This document shows positions 1 through 9,132 of a stretch of DNA of 60,315 nucleotides, piece after piece. Made by a program: the position numbers and the translations under genes. Source of the stretch: a virus; IMG/VR virus record IMGVR_UViG_3300044712_000367, positions 1 to 60,315 of that record; one strand, 5' to 3'. Position 1 is the first letter of the stretch, and every line of letters begins with the position of its first letter. The notes below the pieces were generated by a model. That model was not told where the DNA came from. It saw only the letters and a list, made by a program, of their open reading frames with translations, and did not search any database.

Positions 1-127
1 CGTCCACGCGATGGGCCAAGTGTCGAAATGTGCGGTTTTTACCTCTCTCATGTTGCCCGTGGCACCGCGCAGGTTGGCATCGCGCAGGTTGGCATCGCGC
101 AGGTTGGCACCGCGCAGGTTGGCACCG
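1..127. repeat. Exact 127-bp duplication of the window end (1..127 = 60189..60315). Circular-contig overlap or short terminal redundancy; unique unit 60188 bp
   Basis: Both ends compared base by base: cgtccacgcgatgggcc...cgcaggttggcaccg is identical at both positions. Confidence 0.95.
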
Positions 128-342
128 ATCAGGTTGGCATTGCGCAGGTTGGCATCGCGCAGGTTGGCACCGCGCAGGTTGGCATAGCTCAGGTTGGCAC
201 CGCGCAGGTTGGCATAGCTCAGGTTGGCACCGCGCAGGTTGGCACCGATCAGGTTGGCATTGCGCAGGTTGGCACGAACGCCTCCCGCCTCTCCTTTCAG
301 CCAAAGTTGATGCAGGCGCAGGGTTTCGGTCAGATCGGTCAT
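1..342 (-). CDS. Pentapeptide-repeat protein, N-terminal part (gene split by linearisation; continues 60188..59994, total 178 aa)
   Basis: Minus-strand ATG at 342..340 overlaps the upstream stop (ATGA). Translates [48 protein letters not shown]..., about 14 consecutive A-N-L-x-x pentapeptides. In frame with track ORF 59994..60239 across the overlap. Absent from the track because it runs off the window edge. Confidence 0.85.
61..270. repeat. 14 tandem 15-bp units (GGCAyCGCGCAGGTT-like) encoding the pentapeptide repeats on the minus strand
   Basis: Direct reading. Units differ at only 2-4 positions, with a higher-order pattern (acc-gat / att-gcg pairs recur at units 5-6 and 13-14). Confidence 0.95.
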
Positions 343-473
343 TTACGCACCTCACATTCGGTCATTTCGGTATCCCATTTGATCCAGCAGTCCATTGCTG
401 GCCTTGGCGGCAGCACACCGTCATTGCTTACTACAGCCAAGTCACGCAGCCGCTTCACCAGATCATCAGTCAT
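339..473 (-). CDS. Small hypothetical protein (44 aa)
   Basis: ATG 473..471. [44 protein letters not shown]. Both ends overlap neighbouring genes. N-terminus resembles MSAELVKKLRDL of 57061..57366. Below the ORF-track size cutoff. Confidence 0.5.
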
Positions 474-582
474 AGATTACCGCCCCCGTGATGTCCTCGT
501 ACCAGAAGTACGCCTCGCGCGGGTACGCCCAAGCCCACAGAAGGAACGCTAGTAGCGTCAGTAGGAATAGGTCACGCATCAT
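466..582 (-). CDS. Small membrane protein (38 aa)
   Basis: [38 protein letters not shown]. One hydrophobic helix, high third-position GC. Overlaps the stop of 572..757 and the start of 339..473. Confidence 0.4.
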   Translation of the reverse strand: MMRDLFLLTLLAFLLWAWAYPREAYFWYEDITGAVIYD

Positions 583-757: not shown

Positions 758-1089
758 CCCTTTGCCTTCATCACCAGTGCCACCACCCGTTCAGGGTAAC
801 GGCGGATCATCTTGTCGATATGTGAACGGTTCATGCCCAAATCGCGGGCGAGGTGCGAGATTGAGGGCCATGCGTACTTCCCGATCTTGACCGGCGTGCA
901 GTTGTTTCCGCCCTTTCTGGGCCGACCCACCGCTTCCGCATCGCCGTTCCTGTAGAGCGCCTGATAGACCGCAAAGCGGGTAACGCCTTTGGCGGCGGCC
1001 AGAACAGCGGCACAGCGATAAACCGTGCCACTGTTGGCGACCGGCTTGCACACCAGTTTTGCAGCGCAAGGACGGTCGCAGGGGATCAT
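754..1089 (-). CDS. Putative DNA-binding protein with two HTH-like segments (111 aa)
   Basis: Start trimmed to ATG 1089..1087 (ATGA overlap with the stop of 1086..1733); upstream part of the track ORF is Arg-rich out-of-frame text. HTH-like segments: AAVLAAAKGVTRFAVYQALYRNG and WPSISHLARDLGMNRSHIDKMIRR. Confidence 0.6.
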   Translation of the reverse strand: MIPCDRPCAAKLVCKPVANSGTVYRCAAVLAAAKGVTRFAVYQALYRNGDAEAVGRPRKGGNNCTPVKIGKYAWPSISHLARDLGMNRSHIDKMIRRYPERVVALVMKAKG

Positions 1090-1733
1090 TTCATGGCGAC
1101 CAGACAAACGAATTCGCCGTGCGCCCAGACGACGTTGACGTTCGAGAATTCTTTGTTCAAAGCATCGACCAATTCCCCCTGCTTCATGCGGCGCATGGCA
1201 CCGGCGAGGCTGGCAGATTTGTCGAGGATGGCCTTGTCGTCGAAATTCAGCCGCTTCCATTCCAGCAGGTTGCGCTCGACAATCTCGGACAGGCAGGGGT
1301 CGGCAAGGTGGACCTTCTCGGCGATAATGAACGCGCCGCCATCGACCAGCCCCTCGGCCACGCGCCCGATGGCCTCCACGCGATCCTTCCACGGCAGGAA
1401 CTGCAGCGTGAACAGAGACAGCGCCACGCTGGCCCCCTCGATGCAGTCATCACGCAGCCACGCCATCAGGTCGCGGGTGATGAACTGGGTCTGCGGCACA
1501 TGACCCCGCTGCCAGACGCAACGATCCACCCCCACATACTGGACGTTGGGCCGCTTCACCGTGTCGGTCAGGAACTTGCCGGTCGAGCATCCCAGATCGG
1601 CCACGAAGGTGCCTTCCTGCGCGAGGGCGAAGGTCAGCCCGTGGCACAGGTCGTACATGTCATCGACGGCGGGGATCGATCGGCGGATGTGGCCGTCGAA
1701 ATCGTGGACCTTGAAGTCAAACAAGCTTTTCAT
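1086..1733 (-). CDS. CmoA-family (carboxy-SAM synthase-like) class I SAM-dependent methyltransferase-fold protein
   Basis: 215 aa. FDFKVHDFDGHIRRSIPAV, ADLGCSTGKF, VALSLFTLQFLP, GGAFIIAEK, LEWKRLNFDDKAILDKSASL and C-terminal EFVCLVAMK align by eye along the full length of E. coli CmoA (sequence recalled from memory). Confidence 0.65.
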   Translation of the reverse strand: MKSLFDFKVHDFDGHIRRSIPAVDDMYDLCHGLTFALAQEGTFVADLGCSTGKFLTDTVKRPNVQYVGVDRCVWQRGHVPQTQFITRDLMAWLRDDCIEGASVALSLFTLQFLPWKDRVEAIGRVAEGLVDGGAFIIAEKVHLADPCLSEIVERNLLEWKRLNFDDKAILDKSASLAGAMRRMKQGELVDALNKEFSNVNVVWAHGEFVCLVAMK

Positions 1734-2607
1734 GGATCAGGCTCCCGATGTGCTGGACGACTGGCACGGTCATCCCGTTGAGGCGAAATTGCTGGGCGGT
1801 GGTCAGGCCCACCCCGTCGAGCCAGTCGTCGGGAAAACCCTGCAGGCGCATGCGCTCCGGCGGCATGACACGCCGCACGGTGTTGTCAGGATGCACGACC
1901 AGATCGGTGTAGGATTTGTAGTCGCGCTTGGCCAAGGTGCCGCTCACGGCGCTCGACGCAAAATGGTCAGAGCGTTTACGAGCAAAATAGGCAGGGAGTT
2001 TCCGCTCTCCCTCGACCGCCTCAAGATAGCTTCGACGGCGTTGCTCGAAATCCTTGACCCAGAAGGAGGCGTAGGGTCCAGAACGTCCTGCACAGTCGAA
2101 TAGATCGGTCTCGCGGGGAATTCCGTCGCGGACGGCCACGATGTAAACTCGGCGTCGGGATTGGGGGACGCCGAAGTACTGGCTGTCGAAGAGCGTGTAA
2201 GCCGCATCGTACCCGATACAGGCCAAGTCTCCGAGGACGCGATGCAGTCCACGGGACCGAAGAGCGAATACGTTTTCCACGATTGCGAAGCGCGGTCGTA
2301 CTGCATCAATAGCGTCTCGATACGCCGCCCAAAGTCCTGACTTTTCCCCATCAATTCCCCCTTCGCCCTTACCGGCAATGCTGATGTCTTGGCAGGGGAA
2401 GCCGCCGGTCAGAACGTCAGCCTCCACCTTGCGGATCGCGTCCAGATCGCGAACATCCTCGATGATCGGCAGATCGGGCCAGTGCTTGGCCAGAACCTTG
2501 CGGCTGGCTCGGTCGTTTTCGCAGAACGCCACCGTGCGGTAGTGTCCGGTCCGCTCGAGGCCGAGGGAGAACCCCCCGATGCCGCTGAACAGGTCGAGAA
2601 CCTTCAT
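1717..2607 (-). CDS. DNA (cytosine-5)-methyltransferase with short TRD and atypical motif X
   Basis: Start trimmed to MKVLDLFSGIGG (ATG 2607..2605, ATGA overlap with the upstream stop). Motif I DLFSGIGG, motif II CENDRAS, motif IV GGFPCQDIS, motif VI VENV, motif VIII QSRRRVYIV, motif IX RMRLQGFPDDW. Motif X reads QFRLNGMTVPV instead of the usual G-N-[AS]-V. Confidence 0.9.
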   Translation of the reverse strand: MKVLDLFSGIGGFSLGLERTGHYRTVAFCENDRASRKVLAKHWPDLPIIEDVRDLDAIRKVEADVLTGGFPCQDISIAGKGEGGIDGEKSGLWAAYRDAIDAVRPRFAIVENVFALRSRGLHRVLGDLACIGYDAAYTLFDSQYFGVPQSRRRVYIVAVRDGIPRETDLFDCAGRSGPYASFWVKDFEQRRRSYLEAVEGERKLPAYFARKRSDHFASSAVSGTLAKRDYKSYTDLVVHPDNTVRRVMPPERMRLQGFPDDWLDGVGLTTAQQFRLNGMTVPVVQHIGSLIHEKLV

Positions 2608-2822
2608 TTGATCCACGCGGGGCGCTTCATCGGGCGCACCTGCTGCGTCGGGATGCCCGTGTCCTGACACTGCAGCATCAGGTCGGGCATCTCCGAGATC
2701 AGCAGGTCGTACGTCAGGTCCATCGCCTCCGCGCAGGCGTCCTGCGACGGCATTGCGACGTACGACACCGTCCCCTGCAAGGGTGACCCGTACGTGATGA
2801 TAAGGATCGTCCAGAATGCCAT
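2604..2822 (-). CDS. Small hypothetical protein (72 aa; possibly the 3' part of a frameshifted 109-aa gene)
   Basis: MAFWTILIITYGSPLQGTVSYVAMPSQDACAEAMDLTYDLL... Very high third-position GC in this frame, whereas the overlapping frame of track ORF 1717..3012 has low GC3 here. Confidence 0.65.
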   Translation of the reverse strand: MAFWTILIITYGSPLQGTVSYVAMPSQDACAEAMDLTYDLLISEMPDLMLQCQDTGIPTQQVRPMKRPAWIK

Positions 2823-2931
2823 CTTTTTCCTCCCATGGCGGCATAGACACCGAGACCGGAACCTTCGGCAGGTGCCCATCGGCACTGCTGGTGTAGGACC
2901 GGTTTGGCACAATGATCGTCTTCTTCTTCAT
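2820..2931 (-). CDS. 5' ORF segment MKKKTIIVPNRSYTSSADGHLPKVPVSVSMPPWEEK with no in-frame stop; apparent +1 shift into 2604..2822 at an A5 run
   Basis: ATG 2931..2929 overlaps the stop of 2931..3770 (TGATG). About 75% GC3 over 36 codons, then coding signal moves to the +1 frame at the T5/A5 run 2824..2828. Confidence 0.4.
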
Positions 2932-3770
2932 CAGAACCCCCAGCGTTCGGCGCAGATCGGGCCGATGCCAGCCTCGATGCTGGCGTGATTGGTCAATTCG
3001 CGACCGCAGCAAGCGCAGGTGCCCGTACGGCGGCCATAAGCCACGGCGGCGGCAGCCGGATCGGCGGCGATGGTCTGCAGGCGCTCCAGTGTGTCGGCGC
3101 GGGCCTCACGCACCGCCTTGAAGGTGACGCCGTCGATCTTGCCCTGATAGGCGTCATCCTCGATCTCGACGACGTATAGGCAGCCCGCATTGCGGCCAGA
3201 CACCGAGGCGAGGCTGATTTTGAGGCCCTCGGCGCGGTAGCAGGGCTTCTTGTAGCCGGAGGCGACGGCGGCGTCGAACATCTCGCGGATGCGGTCGAGG
3301 TTGACGGTGCCGCCCTTGGCGGCGGCCTCGGCGGCCTTGGCGGCGCGAGCTGCCTGCAGCTTTTCCCAGCCACGGTTCCACGCGGCGATCTGGTTGGCCG
3401 ACAGGTACCCACGGCGGGACAGCTGATCGTGCAGCGATGCGGTGAATTCGGTGCGGCGGGCGCACAGGTCGACCCACATTTCTGGATGCTCTTCCGAGAA
3501 CTCCTTGACCGCACGGCGCACCTGCTCCGCCTCATCCTCACGCTTGGCCAACGCGGCGGCGCGGCGCTTGGCGCGGAATTCCGGCGAGGTGGTGAAGAAG
3601 CCGCGCCCGCCGCAGGCGAGGCAGTAGCTGTTGCCGTGCCGGTTGGTGCCGCCCGACCACTTGCCCGTGCCGCCACACTGGCCGCAGGGGAACTGCTCTC
3701 CGACCTTGGCGTTGCGGACCTGCAGAGGCTCGTTGGCGAGGCTGTCGATGAAGGCGTCAAAGTCGGACAT
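2931..3770 (-). CDS. Zinc-finger protein with two DnaJ-type CxxCxGxG motifs and a DUF6011-like C-terminus
   Basis: Start trimmed to MSDFDAF (ATG 3770, GGAG 8 nt upstream). CGQCGGTG and CLACGGRG. C-terminal CACCGRELTNHASIEAGIGPICAERW. Confidence 0.7.
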   Translation of the reverse strand: MSDFDAFIDSLANEPLQVRNAKVGEQFPCGQCGGTGKWSGGTNRHGNSYCLACGGRGFFTTSPEFRAKRRAAALAKREDEAEQVRRAVKEFSEEHPEMWVDLCARRTEFTASLHDQLSRRGYLSANQIAAWNRGWEKLQAARAAKAAEAAAKGGTVNLDRIREMFDAAVASGYKKPCYRAEGLKISLASVSGRNAGCLYVVEIEDDAYQGKIDGVTFKAVREARADTLERLQTIAADPAAAAVAYGRRTGTCACCGRELTNHASIEAGIGPICAERWGF

Positions 3771-3801
3771 TTGGAAAACTCCAAGAAACATGATGTGTGT
3801 A

Positions 3802-3830
3802 TACCTACACTGACTTTGTGGGTCGGTCAA
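3802..3830 (-). promoter_or_regulatory. Candidate sigma70-like promoter TTGACC-N17-TAGGTA upstream of 2931..3770
   Basis: Minus-strand -35 at 3830..3825 (overlaps the primase stop), -10 at 3807..3802. 10-bp palindrome ATCGTACGAT lies at 3850..3859, 20 nt upstream. Confidence 0.3.
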
Positions 3831-6136
3831 TCCCCCCCGACAAATTTGTATCGTACGATTGTCTTACGGTTGAACCGGTGGATGCTCTCCTCCGTGACGG
3901 CCTCGCCGCGCTCGACCATTTTGGCCAGACACGCCTCGATGTCTTCCTTCTTGAATTTCCGCAGCCGGTTCACGATCACCCCCAAAGTCTCCCCCTCGTC
4001 GCCCGAGATTACCAGCGAGAGGCGCATCTTGAGTGCGAGGGTAGGCGCGTCGGTTTCGCGGTCGTTGGCGGTCACGAGGCGCATCTTGATGTCGAGGTCG
4101 TGTTTGACCAGCGCGAAGGCCCACCGGACATGCTCCACGGTGCGGACGCCGCCCGCGACGGCGAGGATCAGGCTGATCTTGCTGACCTGCTCGTATCCCC
4201 GCATCATCAGTGCCTCCAGACCGCTGCGCTCTTTATGCTCCTGCGCCATCCGGTCAAAGTACTGGATGATGCTGTCGAGGAGATCGCGCGCCACGCTCTC
4301 GGTGGGGATCACGATCCGGTCGCCGTAATACTCGACGCGGGCATTGAGGGGCTTGGTCATGTCGAAAGAGCCGCCCATGGCAATCTGCTGCAGCGACAGA
4401 CTGAGGTCTTCCGGCAATTTGGGCCGGATGTGGCGGGGCCGCGTGGGAGGCGCGGTGTCTGGCTCGATGCAGAGAATTGAGCGGCCAATAAAGCCGTTGG
4501 CCGCCGCCTCGTAGTCGACCAGCTCGTCGAAATTCTTGCCGGTCGTAAAGCCGATCAGGGACAAAAGGGGCCGGTCGAGGCCTTGGTCGATGGTCTGCAG
4601 CATGTGAACGATGGCGTTTTGCCGGTCTATCAAGTACGTCTTCTGGCCAACCTCGTCGATCTGCTTCTCGACCTTTGCCAGATCGCGCTGCAGCTCACGC
4701 CGGATGTCTTCGCGCATGTCGCCGGAGATCGGCAGGCGGCCATCCGCCTTGGAGTAGGCCGACATCAGGAGGCCCACGATGCCCTCCATGTACACCGCGC
4801 CGCCGCGCTTCTGGGCCGACTTGATCTTCTGCAGCAGGAACCCGATTTCGTCGACGAGGTAGAACGCGGCCTGATTTCGGGTCAGGTTTCGGGTGATCTC
4901 TTGCTCCGACTTGATGGTGCCGTGGGTGGCGGAGGCGAGGCCGCAGGCCACCATGACTTCAAGGATCGCCTGAACGATAGCCTCCTTGCCTGATCCGGAC
5001 CCCGCCACGTTGAACACGAAGAGGTTGGTGGTGGCGCGGTCAAGGTCGTCGGTATAGCGCAGGCCTGCGATATTCCCCATCGCGTACACCGCCGCCATGG
5101 ACGAGAGGCGCTCACGCGGGCGGCGTCCCCGCTGGTTGATCCACTCCGCCAGCTTTCCGGTCAGGCCTGGCGGGCGCAGCAGGTCGACGCCACGCGTGTC
5201 CAGCAGGTCGACTGTCTTCTCCTCGATCACCGGAAACTCAAACTCGACATCGGGGCGGAAAGTCACCGGCTGTTTCCAGCCGCCCTGCTCGGCGTAGTGG
5301 ACGAGGGTGCCCAGCGTGACGGGGTTGGCCGACTTGCCGAAGCTGTGCCACTTGCTCGGCATAACCTTCGGGTCGTGCTTGGACGACTGGGCCGACCAGC
5401 TCTCCCAGAGGTCGTAGGCGGTGCCGCCGGAGGCGTGGTGCAGCGCCATGCCGACGCGGACCCACTCCTCGTAGTCGCTGTCGCTGTTCGGCACAAAGCG
5501 CAGCATCTCGGCCAGATCGTCTTGGCTGACATCCACCGTCTGGCCACCCAGCTCGGCGCGGTGGCGCTCCGGCTTCTGGATCAGCGCGATCAGGTCGGCG
5601 GGGGCCTCGTCGATGTCCTCGGCGCTTCCGTAGGCGACCTCGTACCGGTTCCCGCTGGCGTGCAGGCTGCCCGCGCCGACGATGTAGGCGGCCCCGCTCT
5701 TGAAGTCGATGCCCTTGAAGTCGGGGTGCTTGGTCAGCAGCGCCAGCCCCTTCCTGACCTTGAACAGCAGGTGCTTCGATCCGCCGCCCGATCCGGTGTT
5801 CACGATCAGGCCCGCGCCCGACACCGACGGCACCCTCTCCAGCAAACGGTCGTAGTCTGGCAGGCCGCCGTTGCGGGCATCCACATCAACCACCAGCAAG
5901 TCCCAGTCGTCGTCGATGCGGCACAGGGTGCCAAAGCCAGTGGCAAACTGGCCCATCATCTCCATCACCTCCAACTGCTCCTCGGACCAGTGCGGGGTGT
6001 GCTGCCAGTTCGAGACGAGGGGATGCTTGCCCACGGCCTTGCAGGTAGGGTCGCCGCAGGCGCACTTATTGTCGGCGGTGATGGCGTGAAGACCGAAGAC
6101 GCGAAGTCCGGCCTCCCAGAAGGAGCGGTGAGACAT
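3827..6136 (-). CDS. Replicative primase-helicase fusion (Prim-Pol N-domain, PriCT-like region, DUF3987/D5-type NTPase)
   Basis: 769 aa. KAVGKHPLVSNWQH and VVDVDARNGG (Prim-Pol-like). YEEWVRVGMALHHASGG..WESWS (PriCT-like). FNVAGSGSGKE Walker A. Confidence 0.85.
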   Translation of the reverse strand: MSHRSFWEAGLRVFGLHAITADNKCACGDPTCKAVGKHPLVSNWQHTPHWSEEQLEVMEMMGQFATGFGTLCRIDDDWDLLVVDVDARNGGLPDYDRLLERVPSVSGAGLIVNTGSGGGSKHLLFKVRKGLALLTKHPDFKGIDFKSGAAYIVGAGSLHASGNRYEVAYGSAEDIDEAPADLIALIQKPERHRAELGGQTVDVSQDDLAEMLRFVPNSDSDYEEWVRVGMALHHASGGTAYDLWESWSAQSSKHDPKVMPSKWHSFGKSANPVTLGTLVHYAEQGGWKQPVTFRPDVEFEFPVIEEKTVDLLDTRGVDLLRPPGLTGKLAEWINQRGRRPRERLSSMAAVYAMGNIAGLRYTDDLDRATTNLFVFNVAGSGSGKEAIVQAILEVMVACGLASATHGTIKSEQEITRNLTRNQAAFYLVDEIGFLLQKIKSAQKRGGAVYMEGIVGLLMSAYSKADGRLPISGDMREDIRRELQRDLAKVEKQIDEVGQKTYLIDRQNAIVHMLQTIDQGLDRPLLSLIGFTTGKNFDELVDYEAAANGFIGRSILCIEPDTAPPTRPRHIRPKLPEDLSLSLQQIAMGGSFDMTKPLNARVEYYGDRIVIPTESVARDLLDSIIQYFDRMAQEHKERSGLEALMMRGYEQVSKISLILAVAGGVRTVEHVRWAFALVKHDLDIKMRLVTANDRETDAPTLALKMRLSLVISGDEGETLGVIVNRLRKFKKEDIEACLAKMVERGEAVTEESIHRFNRKTIVRYKFVGGD

Positions 6137-8370: not shown

Positions 8371-8512
8371 GACCGCGCAGTACGCCCTCTGGGCCATCGC
8401 GGTCGTGCTGGCGCTGATGCTGCTCTGGTTTGTCGCCAAGGCGGTGTTCCCCTTCGCGCTGGGCGCTGCGGCGGGCTTCGCGGCGATGTGGTGGTATCAG
8501 AACCGCGCATGA
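8363..8512 (+). CDS. Small two-helix membrane protein (49 aa)
   Basis: MPKTAQYALWAIAVVLALMLLWFVAKAVFPFALGAAAGFAAMWWYQNRA. Overlaps the TerB stop; its stop overlaps the next ATG (ATGA). Below the track cutoff. Confidence 0.5.
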   Translation: MPKTAQYALWAIAVVLALMLLWFVAKAVFPFALGAAAGFAAMWWYQNRA

Positions 8513-9132
8513 CAATCCGGGTGGCCTTCGGGCCACCCTTCCTTACCCTTGCAATGAGCATGACCATGACCCGATTGACCAAAGATGCCCGCCAGACGCT
8601 GCACCGCCAGATCATGCACGGCATTCCCGACATCGACTACCTCACCCAGATCAGGCAGATCGGGCAGGAGGAGATCATCCGTTTTGCCCCGAAATCGGTG
8701 CAGACGGTCTACGCCAATGAAGGCACCCGCCGCCACCTGATGGCCCACCTCTTTAACTTGAAGCGCGGCAACGCATCGATCTTATGGCACCGCTGTTACG
8801 GGCTGACCGATGACCTCACCCTGCGGATGGATGAAGGCGTCATGGCTTACCTCAAGGAAGGCACCGTGCATCACGCCATCGCCATTCGCATCCTGAAAGA
8901 TGACCTGCTGAACAAATATCTCGAGCAGGAAGCCCTGCGCGAGAGCGTGTCGAAGCGCCTGAAGGCGAACCTTGAGGCCGCGAACACGATCAAGCAGCTG
9001 TATGAGACGCTGGAGCCGGAATTGCACCGCTTCATCCCGAGGGAGCCGGAGGCGGTGAAGAAGGTGAACCTGCCCACGGCCATCGCGCCCGTGGTGGAAG
9101 ACCTGAAGAAACTCGGATTTGGAGCCAAGTGA
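8509..9132 (+). CDS. Hypothetical protein (207 aa)
   Basis: Track ORF 8488..9132 with start moved to ATG 8509 (ATGA coupling). No family recognised. Confidence 0.6.
   Translation: MTIRVAFGPPFLTLAMSMTMTRLTKDARQTLHRQIMHGIPDIDYLTQIRQIGQEEIIRFAPKSVQTVYANEGTRRHLMAHLFNLKRGNASILWHRCYGLTDDLTLRMDEGVMAYLKEGTVHHAIAIRILKDDLLNKYLEQEALRESVSKRLKANLEAANTIKQLYETLEPELHRFIPREPEAVKKVNLPTAIAPVVEDLKKLGFGAK

Follow-up and report, generated by a model that had tools for sequence, protein, structure and literature searches.

Carboxymethylation of phage DNA has been described for Synechococcus phage S-B43 (Yang et al., Nat Commun 2025, December; PMC12783734), whose CmoA (SpCmoA) makes carboxy-S-adenosylmethionine (carboxy-SAM, Cx-SAM), whose CmoX (SpCmoX), a homologue of C5-cytosine methyltransferases (C5-MTases), writes 5-carboxymethylcytosine (5cxmC) at GC sites, and whose CmoY, an asparagine-synthetase-like ATP-dependent amide ligase, adds glycine to 5cxmC. 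Phage CmoA and CmoX together gave 5cxmC both in vitro and in E. coli, as well as in virion DNA, and the modification blocked HhaI; in the crystal structure of CmoX with Cx-SAM (8YF3), Arg350 takes the place of Asn304 of M.HhaI and touches the carboxymethyl group, and 5,615 candidate CmoX sequences were catalogued by means of the SPPC motif together with R350 (PMC12783734). In the engineered carboxymethyltransferases M.MpeI N374K, M.MedI N377K and M.CviPI Y205K,R, the newly introduced lysine or arginine forms a salt bridge with the Cx-SAM carboxylate (PMC12015181, PMC13288465). Here, two overlapping minus-strand genes of IMG/VR virus record IMGVR_UViG_3300044712_000367 (positions 1 to 60,315, the whole stretch analysed and called the window below) were compared with these systems, namely a homologue of CmoA (1086..1733) and a C5-cytosine DNA transferase (1717..2607).

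The two genes were read as a candidate two-gene, translationally coupled 5-carboxymethylcytosine module in which Cx-SAM would be used without a cation, and this reading was given a probability of roughly 60% on the basis of sequence comparison and of analogy with the systems above. Phage carboxymethylation is no longer a new concept in kind, since it was published by Yang et al. (PMC12783734); what is new relative to the literature, as judged from sequence, is a third lineage of CmoA-coupled C5-transferases, which falls outside the published CmoX definition and is not accompanied by a ligase.

The CmoA-like protein and the overlapping transferase

Gene 1086..1733 (minus strand) encodes a protein of 215 amino acids (aa), which was assigned as a carboxy-SAM synthase homologue from TIGR00740, PHROG 4752, its fold and its similarity to SpCmoA. 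The TIGR00740 (CmoA) profile matched residues 5-215 over profile positions 17-239 of 239 (E = 1.8e-17), whereas the best generic methyltransferase (MTase) model reached only E = 5e-4; CmoA was thus far ahead of the general models, and the end-to-end CmoA assignment made by eye in the initial annotation held. PHROG 4752 was matched at E = 4e-34, and a sequence search of the Protein Data Bank (PDB) returned CmoA chains alone at E of about 3e-13, the next match being at 0.009. BLASTP against the biochemically validated SpCmoA gave 31% identity over 204 of the 215 residues (E = 9e-31), identity to E. coli CmoA was 25%, and the closest matches among cultured phages were Synechococcus phage CmoAs, including that of S-B43. 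The CmoA fold (class I MTase core plus lid helices) was present in an AlphaFold2 (AF2) model (pLDDT 88.2), the six top Foldseek matches of which were the CmoA structures 4GEK, 4IWN and 1IM8 (TM 0.81-0.84, E of about 1e-16), with CysG/BelI next in the ranking and close behind (E of about 3e-14); the predicted structure is closest to CmoA. Based on profile searches, fold and similarity to SpCmoA, the CmoA identity of this protein is well supported. Source databases label it tRNA (cmo5U34)-methyltransferase, and PHROG 4752 carries the name 'tRNA methyltransferase'.

Individual residues were compared in an alignment of E. coli CmoA, SpCmoA and 31 homologues, in which the E. coli sequence agreed with all residue numbers published for it (PMC3663124). 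Residues that contact SAM (D62, G64, S66, D89, D117, F137 and E164) were kept in the window protein, which like E. coli CmoA (4GEK/4IWN; TM 0.82 to 4GEK) has the CmoA fold but, unlike it, lacks Arg199 and Asn132 and has a transferase of DNA, not of RNA, encoded beside it. Substitutions, in E. coli numbering, were Y39 to V, N132 to L and R199 to S; SpCmoA has Leu and Glu in columns 132 and 199, respectively, and Tyr at 39, so that both full-length phage homologues are without Arg199 and Asn132. In fact, neither residue occurred in any phage CmoA-like protein aligned (column 199 being E, D, S, Q or A), and the Arg199 salt bridge to the Cx-SAM carboxylate does not appear, from these sequences, to be a defining trait of the phage CmoA clade. 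The serine in the Arg199 column had been entered in the initial annotation as a caveat on catalytic equivalence, which is moot: it is no argument against Cx-SAM synthase activity, and was rejected as a disqualifying feature, because the active SpCmoA carries Glu in that column and exceeds E. coli CmoA in activity (PMC12783734).

The start codon of the CmoA-like gene lies at 1733..1731 and the TGA stop of the transferase gene at 1717..1719, so that the 17-nt overlap (1717..1733, minus strand) reported in the initial annotation is real; from the sequence, the two genes are probably translationally coupled, and a Shine-Dalgarno-like GGGAG is found 8 nt upstream of the CmoA-like ATG. The transferase gene (1717..2607, minus strand; ATG at 2607, N-terminal residues MKVLDLFSGIGG) encodes 296 aa and was assigned through PF00145 (E = 2.3e-48, residues 1-289), TIGR00675 (E = 5e-45; 154.6 bits, over the cut-off of 100.65) and PHROG 116 (E = 8e-73). 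Motifs I, II, IV, VI, VIII and IX are canonical (DLFSGIGG, ENDRAS, GGFPCQDIS, ENV, QSRRRVY and RLQGFPDDW), and these, like the motif X string QFRLNGMTVPV, were found in the translation just as first quoted. In motif IV, the codons of F70-P71-C72 (2392..2400, minus strand; TTC CCC TGC) place the catalytic cysteine in GFPC and not in SPPC, the full GFPCQDIS being common to the enzyme and its canonical relatives. The best fold match of the AF2 model (pLDDT 82) was M.HhaI; 8YF3 (SpCmoX) was the 17th-best Foldseek match, after M.HhaI, M.HaeIII and Dnmt2, and hence no nearer than M.HhaI, and sequence identity to SpCmoX was 23%.

The canonical G-N-[AS]-V of motif X is absent from this transferase, which has L-N-G-M-T-V instead, with the codons of N277-G278-M279 (1771..1779, minus strand; AAC GGG ATG) replacing the canonical G-N. 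This motif had been taken as 'scrambled' in a single gene, but proved to be a family signature: among unique paired homologues, G278 and M279 were conserved in 60 out of 60, with Asn at position 277 in 51 of them and Cys in the other 9. GFPCQDIS was present in nearly all 120 of the closest database homologues, and where their motif X lay inside the C-terminal 60 residues it was almost always x-N-G-M-[ST], with G-G-M, S-G-M, C-G-M and P-G-M as rare variants. Judged from these sequences, [N/C]-G-M marks out a large MTase family that is almost confined to phages (the 'G-M' family), and for which two matches were found in 185,579 species representatives of bacterial genomes. In the AF2 model, N277-G278-M279 fall in a loop predicted at residues 276-280 and flanked by helices 270-275 and 281-295. 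The exact register varied with the method: phmmer against M.HhaI paired N277 with N304 by opening a gap, BLASTP and hhalign against the SpCmoX class paired G278 with R350, and an argument from conservation, based on the universal Gly and on where [AS]-V stands, favours G278 as the equivalent of G303 and M279 as that of N304, with Asn277 probably an insertion. The Asn304 equivalent is uncharged in every register, Gly278 or Met279 standing at R350 depending on the alignment.

Linkage of the transferase family to phage CmoA

Linkage was examined starting from either gene. The CmoA-first sample consisted of 80 IMG/VR loci with CmoA-like genes, plus the window and the S-B43 locus (82 in total), and was obtained with a narrow alignment; a single CmoA-like query gave no viral relatives, and a broad alignment was too diverse for patterns. 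The family search used the C-terminal half of the MTase, which is its family-specific part. A C5-MTase adjoined the phage CmoA in 75 of the 82 loci, and CmoA in turn directly adjoined the G-M MTase in 59/60 IMG/VR loci and in 70/70 informative metagenome loci. Pooling and de-duplication left 72 unique full-length family members (3 uninformative), out of which 64 had CmoA within 1.5 kb (64 of the 69 informative members, leaving 5 without); the cmoA-like/dcm-like pair first noticed in the window thus recurs widely in other phages. All but 2 of the 64 unique MTase/CmoA pairs (62) were on the same strand and either overlapping or no more than 50 nt apart, and at 70% identity the family formed 18 clusters with CmoA versus 2 without. 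Pairwise identities among the MTases and among their partner CmoAs were strongly correlated (Pearson 0.93; 0 of 999 Mantel permutations reached this value), indicating that the two genes have been inherited as a unit.

As a control, loci returned by the full-length MTase alignment were used, which mostly held canonical G-N MTases sharing the N-terminal domain alone; CmoA was found within 6 kb of these canonical relatives in 0/79 loci. The control MTases were 50-60% identical in the N-terminal cofactor domain and had the canonical motif X LGNAVVPQIP, and hhalign aligned the G-M and canonical groups with a probability of 100 (E = 2e-82 over residues 1-166). Since motifs I-VI were nearly the same in the two groups, motif X represents the main difference between their cofactor pockets. 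In other words, canonical orphan phage 5-methylcytosine (5mC) MTases (GFPCQDIS, LGNAVVPQIP) resemble the window enzyme in size, phage context and almost superimposable motifs I-VI, but differ from it in the target-recognition region, in motifs VIII-X (with G-N in motif X) and in the lack of a CmoA neighbour.

No third gene family was conserved beside the pair in 38 non-redundant loci, and phmmer with SpCmoY found no CmoY-like ligase in the window or in the 60 IMG/VR G-M loci; a CmoY-type ligase was present in 21 loci of the general CmoA locus set. A second, Arg-type MTase as the usual real CmoX was considered and rejected, since in 77 of the 83 unique loci no C5-MTase other than the G-M one lay near CmoA and a second C5-MTase was present in only 6. 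Altogether, functional coupling of the G-M MTase family to CmoA is well supported.

Three classes of C5-MTase were found beside phage CmoA: SPPC with G-R-M-V-P-P (the SpCmoX type), GTPC with Y-E-A-C-G-R-A-M-S, and GFPC with N-G-M (the window); in the classes other than G-M, the Asn of motif X is replaced by Arg or Lys. The GTPC class (motif X Y-E-A-C-G-R-[AS]-M-S), represented among loci L015-L082 (for example, L020:4701-6014 and L033:3187-4743), was about as common as the SpCmoX type among the IMG/VR CmoA loci, and would also be missed by a literal filter for SPPC plus R350, because it has the Arg and not the SPPC. In the SPbeta-like Staphylococcus phage KT429160 (L314:3154-4152), a C5-MTase lies directly downstream of an annotated cmoA and has the motif X D-V-V-G-G-V-I-N; by eye, Gly replaces the canonical Asn and there is no cation, which would make it a second independent Arg-less CmoA-linked MTase, in this case from a cultured phage. 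The second C5-MTases flanking the same CmoA (L026/L186:6635-7781, L165:7245-8303, L175:7269-8327, L172:5713-6729, L245:8230-9351 and L231:688-1512) showed the motif X sequences F-G-K-S-M-A-V-P (with Lys, like the engineered N374K), Y-E-R-C-S-G-I-P and Y-E-R-L-G-R-T-L, and from these six loci it follows that one CmoA may serve two transferases of different specificity. In some cultured phages the CmoA homologue had no C5-MTase within 2.5 kb, as in Alcaligenes phage Afa-NA1 (L312), where CmoA adjoins NUDIX and dTMP kinase genes, and in Erwinia jumbo phages (L315, Erwinia phage pEa_SNUABM_5), where it adjoins an Asn-synthetase-like gene only; the transferase may be encoded elsewhere in these genomes, or CmoA may have another role in them.

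Genome and operon setting

The first and last 127 nt of the window (1..127 and 60189..60315) are identical, forming a terminal direct repeat, and the window is therefore a complete genome of about 60.2 kb, either circularly closed or terminally redundant; it is of the SU10-like podophage type, with 61% G+C. The repeat falls within a pentapeptide-repeat-like open reading frame (ORF; 28..552), the DNA of which is 85-91% identical to pentapeptide-repeat genes in Salmonella, Edwardsiella and Bordetella phages. A genome-wide scan found exactly one DNA MTase (1717..2607) and exactly one CmoA-like gene (1086..1733), leaving no other candidate in this genome for consuming Cx-SAM.

The pair ends a tightly packed early/replication operon on the minus strand, as seen from recurring ATGA overlaps, which bear out the coupling of neighbouring genes that had been noted at the outset. 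Upstream of the MTase lie a 102-aa ORF (2604..2912), the stop of which overlaps the MTase start as ATGA (2604..2607), a DUF6011 protein (2931..3830) and a prim-pol/helicase (3827..6136), which shares an ATGA overlap with the DUF6011 gene (3827..3830). Together, these minus-strand genes (2604..6136) matched PF19474, PF09250, PF08707 and PHROG 3022 DNA primase (E = 1e-135).

Farther away, on the plus strand and between the genes for a single-stranded DNA-binding protein (SSB) and a YqaJ exonuclease, a 214-aa protein (8488..9132) gave a sub-threshold Pfam match to Nmad5, 'nucleotide modification associated domain 5' (24.3 bits relative to a cut-off of 27, E = 4e-5), and no PHROG match. Other matches in the whole-proteome Pfam scan were to a protein with an Acb2/Tad1 hairpin domain (E = 4e-11), which belongs to a family of anti-CBASS/Thoeris sponges, to a dCTP-deaminase-like/dUTPase protein and to one resembling SprT. 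The genome further encodes ART-PolyVal ADP-ribosyltransferase (E = 1e-40) and InPase (E = 5e-48) domains, which are typical of polyvalent virion proteins; ParB domains gave no match when the whole genome was scanned with Pfam.

Proposed carboxymethylation and rival explanations

The initial annotation had proposed that the phage makes its own Cx-SAM and uses an adapted MTase to write 5cxmC. Such a route is established for S-B43 (PMC12783734), and the CmoA identity and CmoA linkage found here fit it; the part that did not stand up concerns the cofactor determinant, where the Arg/Lys of known carboxymethyltransferases (SpCmoX R350, M.MpeI N374K) is absent, as is the SPPC motif. As in S-B43, a CmoA homologue lies directly beside a C5-MTase homologue in a cluster of DNA-metabolism genes, and the window transferase has the catalytic cysteine (Cys72 in PC), ENV and QxRxR; from the definition of CmoX it thus shares the C5-MTase fold with its cysteine and the association with CmoA, but not SPPC or Arg350, and no CmoY-type ligase accompanies it or the 60 IMG/VR family loci.

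In the mechanism that we propose, the CmoA homologue would convert host SAM and prephenate into carboxy-SAM, as homology to the validated SpCmoA suggests. Cys72 of the transferase would then attack C6 of a flipped-out cytosine, after which the carboxymethyl group of Cx-SAM would be transferred to C5, and 5-carboxymethylcytosine at the enzyme's target sites would shield the phage DNA from restriction; both steps are suggested by the gene coupling and by the CmoA/CmoX precedent. The Gly-Met loop, located where the last helix begins, would presumably accommodate the carboxylate, which, speculatively, might be bound through backbone amides or the helix dipole. Given that the pair has no linked amide ligase, modification probably ends with the carboxymethyl group, leaving bare 5cxmC as the final mark. 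Coupling of the two genes is an observation, whereas we infer Cx-SAM synthesis by the CmoA-like enzyme from its sequence, and carboxymethyl transfer by a predicted enzyme without the arginine from sequence and analogy.

Several observations weigh against carboxymethylation by this family. The transferases of the window and of S-B43 belong to different families, with GFPC instead of SPPC and with Gly278 or Met279 where CmoX has Arg350, and the R350N variant of SpCmoX lost all activity (PMC12783734). Nowhere in motif X of the G-M family is there an invariant Arg or Lys. The engineered carboxymethyltransferases resemble the window enzyme in that a C5-MTase scaffold is turned to Cx-SAM by a change in motif X, with the CmoA of a host or partner supplying the cofactor, but these gained Lys or Arg, while the window family has an invariant Gly-Met and no conserved cation there; in saturation mutagenesis of M.MpeI N374, cationic side chains were favoured (PMC13288465). 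Moreover, an odd motif X is no proof of a new cofactor, since M.CviPI, a natural 5mC enzyme, has the non-Asn residue Tyr205 at this position (PMC13288465). As for the synthase, its scores against TIGR00740 (63.9 bits) and NF011995 (45.8 bits, E = 5e-12) are under the curated cut-offs of 193.3 and 285, respectively, even though these are by far its best-matching families and match from end to end, and in the subclade to which it belongs, V/I stands at Y39 and S at R199, as against Y and E in SpCmoA. Finally, the linkage data cannot separate an MTase that uses Cx-SAM from one that tolerates it, being compatible with both alike.

Family members without a phage CmoA count on the same side. A G-M subfamily with a C-terminal extension of about 50-66 aa has none; it comprises Vibrio phages S4-7, 1.052.A and 1.233.A/B, loci L223 and L224 included, together with L179 and L228-L230. 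Two further members (L226 and L227) had no CmoA within 3 kb. The extension shows the conserved pattern ..FYADG.YR...S.FS..WL....DY.., and a 208-aa gene overlapping the start of the S4-7 MTase was tested as a cryptic CmoA and found not to be one. Many gamma-proteobacteria, Vibrio among them, encode cmoA, and for this reason the CmoA-less Vibrio phages could rely on Cx-SAM made by their hosts, in the way that SpCmoX can in E. coli (PMC12783734).

Precedent nevertheless points to a cation being helpful and not obligatory for Cx-SAM use, if other enzymes are a guide: wild-type CNMT and COMT accept cxSAM, with the space-making substitution M40A raising selectivity (PMC7496830), and wild-type M.MedI has weak carboxymethylation activity (PMC12015181). 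The wider proposal, that the [N/C]-G-M family represents a third, evolutionarily independent natural lineage of DNA carboxymethyltransferases, with cation-free Gly-Met recognition of Cx-SAM and with modification ending at bare 5cxmC in many phages from marine and freshwater habitats, stands at about even odds.

The strongest rival, which we consider unlikely though worth taking seriously, is that the MTase is an ordinary SAM-dependent 5mC enzyme, and that CmoA separately turns SAM into Cx-SAM, thereby starving or poisoning SAM-dependent host defences (type I/III restriction-modification (R-M), BREX, SAM-AMP signalling), the G-M motif X being an adaptation to low SAM and high Cx-SAM. Depletion of SAM by phage CmoA was itself posed as an open question by Yang et al. 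(PMC12783734), and fully canonical motifs I-IX, an N-terminal domain almost identical to that of canonical MTases, the missing cation, the tolerance of natural 5mC MTases for non-Asn residues in motif X and the existence of CmoA-less family members would all agree with an ordinary enzyme. However, a stand-alone anti-defence CmoA should often lack a C5-MTase or adjoin MTases of any type, which is not what the 75/82 and 0/79 counts show; the two genes overlap and co-diverge, draining SAM would handicap a SAM-dependent partner made from the same transcript, and the other CmoA-linked MTase classes bear the Arg/Lys shown to bind the Cx-SAM carboxylate.

Less probable still is that the pair adds some other substituent to cytosine C5, with a divergent CmoA-like enzyme making another SAM derivative or using another co-substrate, or that 5cxmC is an intermediate for an unlinked phage or host enzyme. 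The distance of the synthase from its characterised relatives (31% identity to SpCmoA, 25% to E. coli CmoA, profile scores under the curated cut-off), the V/I and S of its subclade, a transferase pocket devoid of a carboxylate-binding cation, and the weak Nmad5 and dCTP-deaminase-like matches elsewhere in the genome could be accommodated in this way. Yet the CmoA fold and SAM-binding residues are kept, no third gene is conserved beside the pair in the 38 non-redundant loci, and further G-M MTases are paired with CmoAs bearing the Y..E-K-E signature of SpCmoA, so that an association with a deviant synthase does not hold for the family at large.

That the CmoA homologue boosts tRNA cmo5U34 through host CmoB and so tunes translation of phage mRNA, with the MTase a coincidental neighbour, is very improbable: it would agree with the database and PHROG 4752 labels and with the role of bacterial CmoA, which acts with CmoB in the tRNA cmo5U34 pathway (PMC3663124), but a near-obligate, overlapping and co-diverging tie to one DNA MTase family is not coincidental, SpCmoA bore the same annotation before its DNA-modification role was demonstrated, and only CmoA and the C5-MTase recur in the 38 non-redundant loci, where no CmoB-like partner was found recurring beside the pair in a comparison that included no search aimed at CmoB.

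Phage CmoA is thus tied equally tightly to a C5-transferase family that has neither SPPC nor the active-site Arg and that counts more than 70 distinct relatives. Should this family not carboxymethylate DNA, it would provide a clear case of a cofactor-converting enzyme paired with an MTase adapted to a changed SAM pool. If, as we favour, it does, a pocket that forms no salt bridge could select for Cx-SAM, which would be a new design principle for engineered carboxymethyltransferases (CxMTases) of the kind used in methylome sequencing (DM-Seq, CMD-seq style). Some phages would then use bare 5cxmC rather than an amide hypermodification, and 5cxmC would have a wider distribution and more varied origins than the census based on SPPC and Arg350 suggests, a large part of it having been missed.

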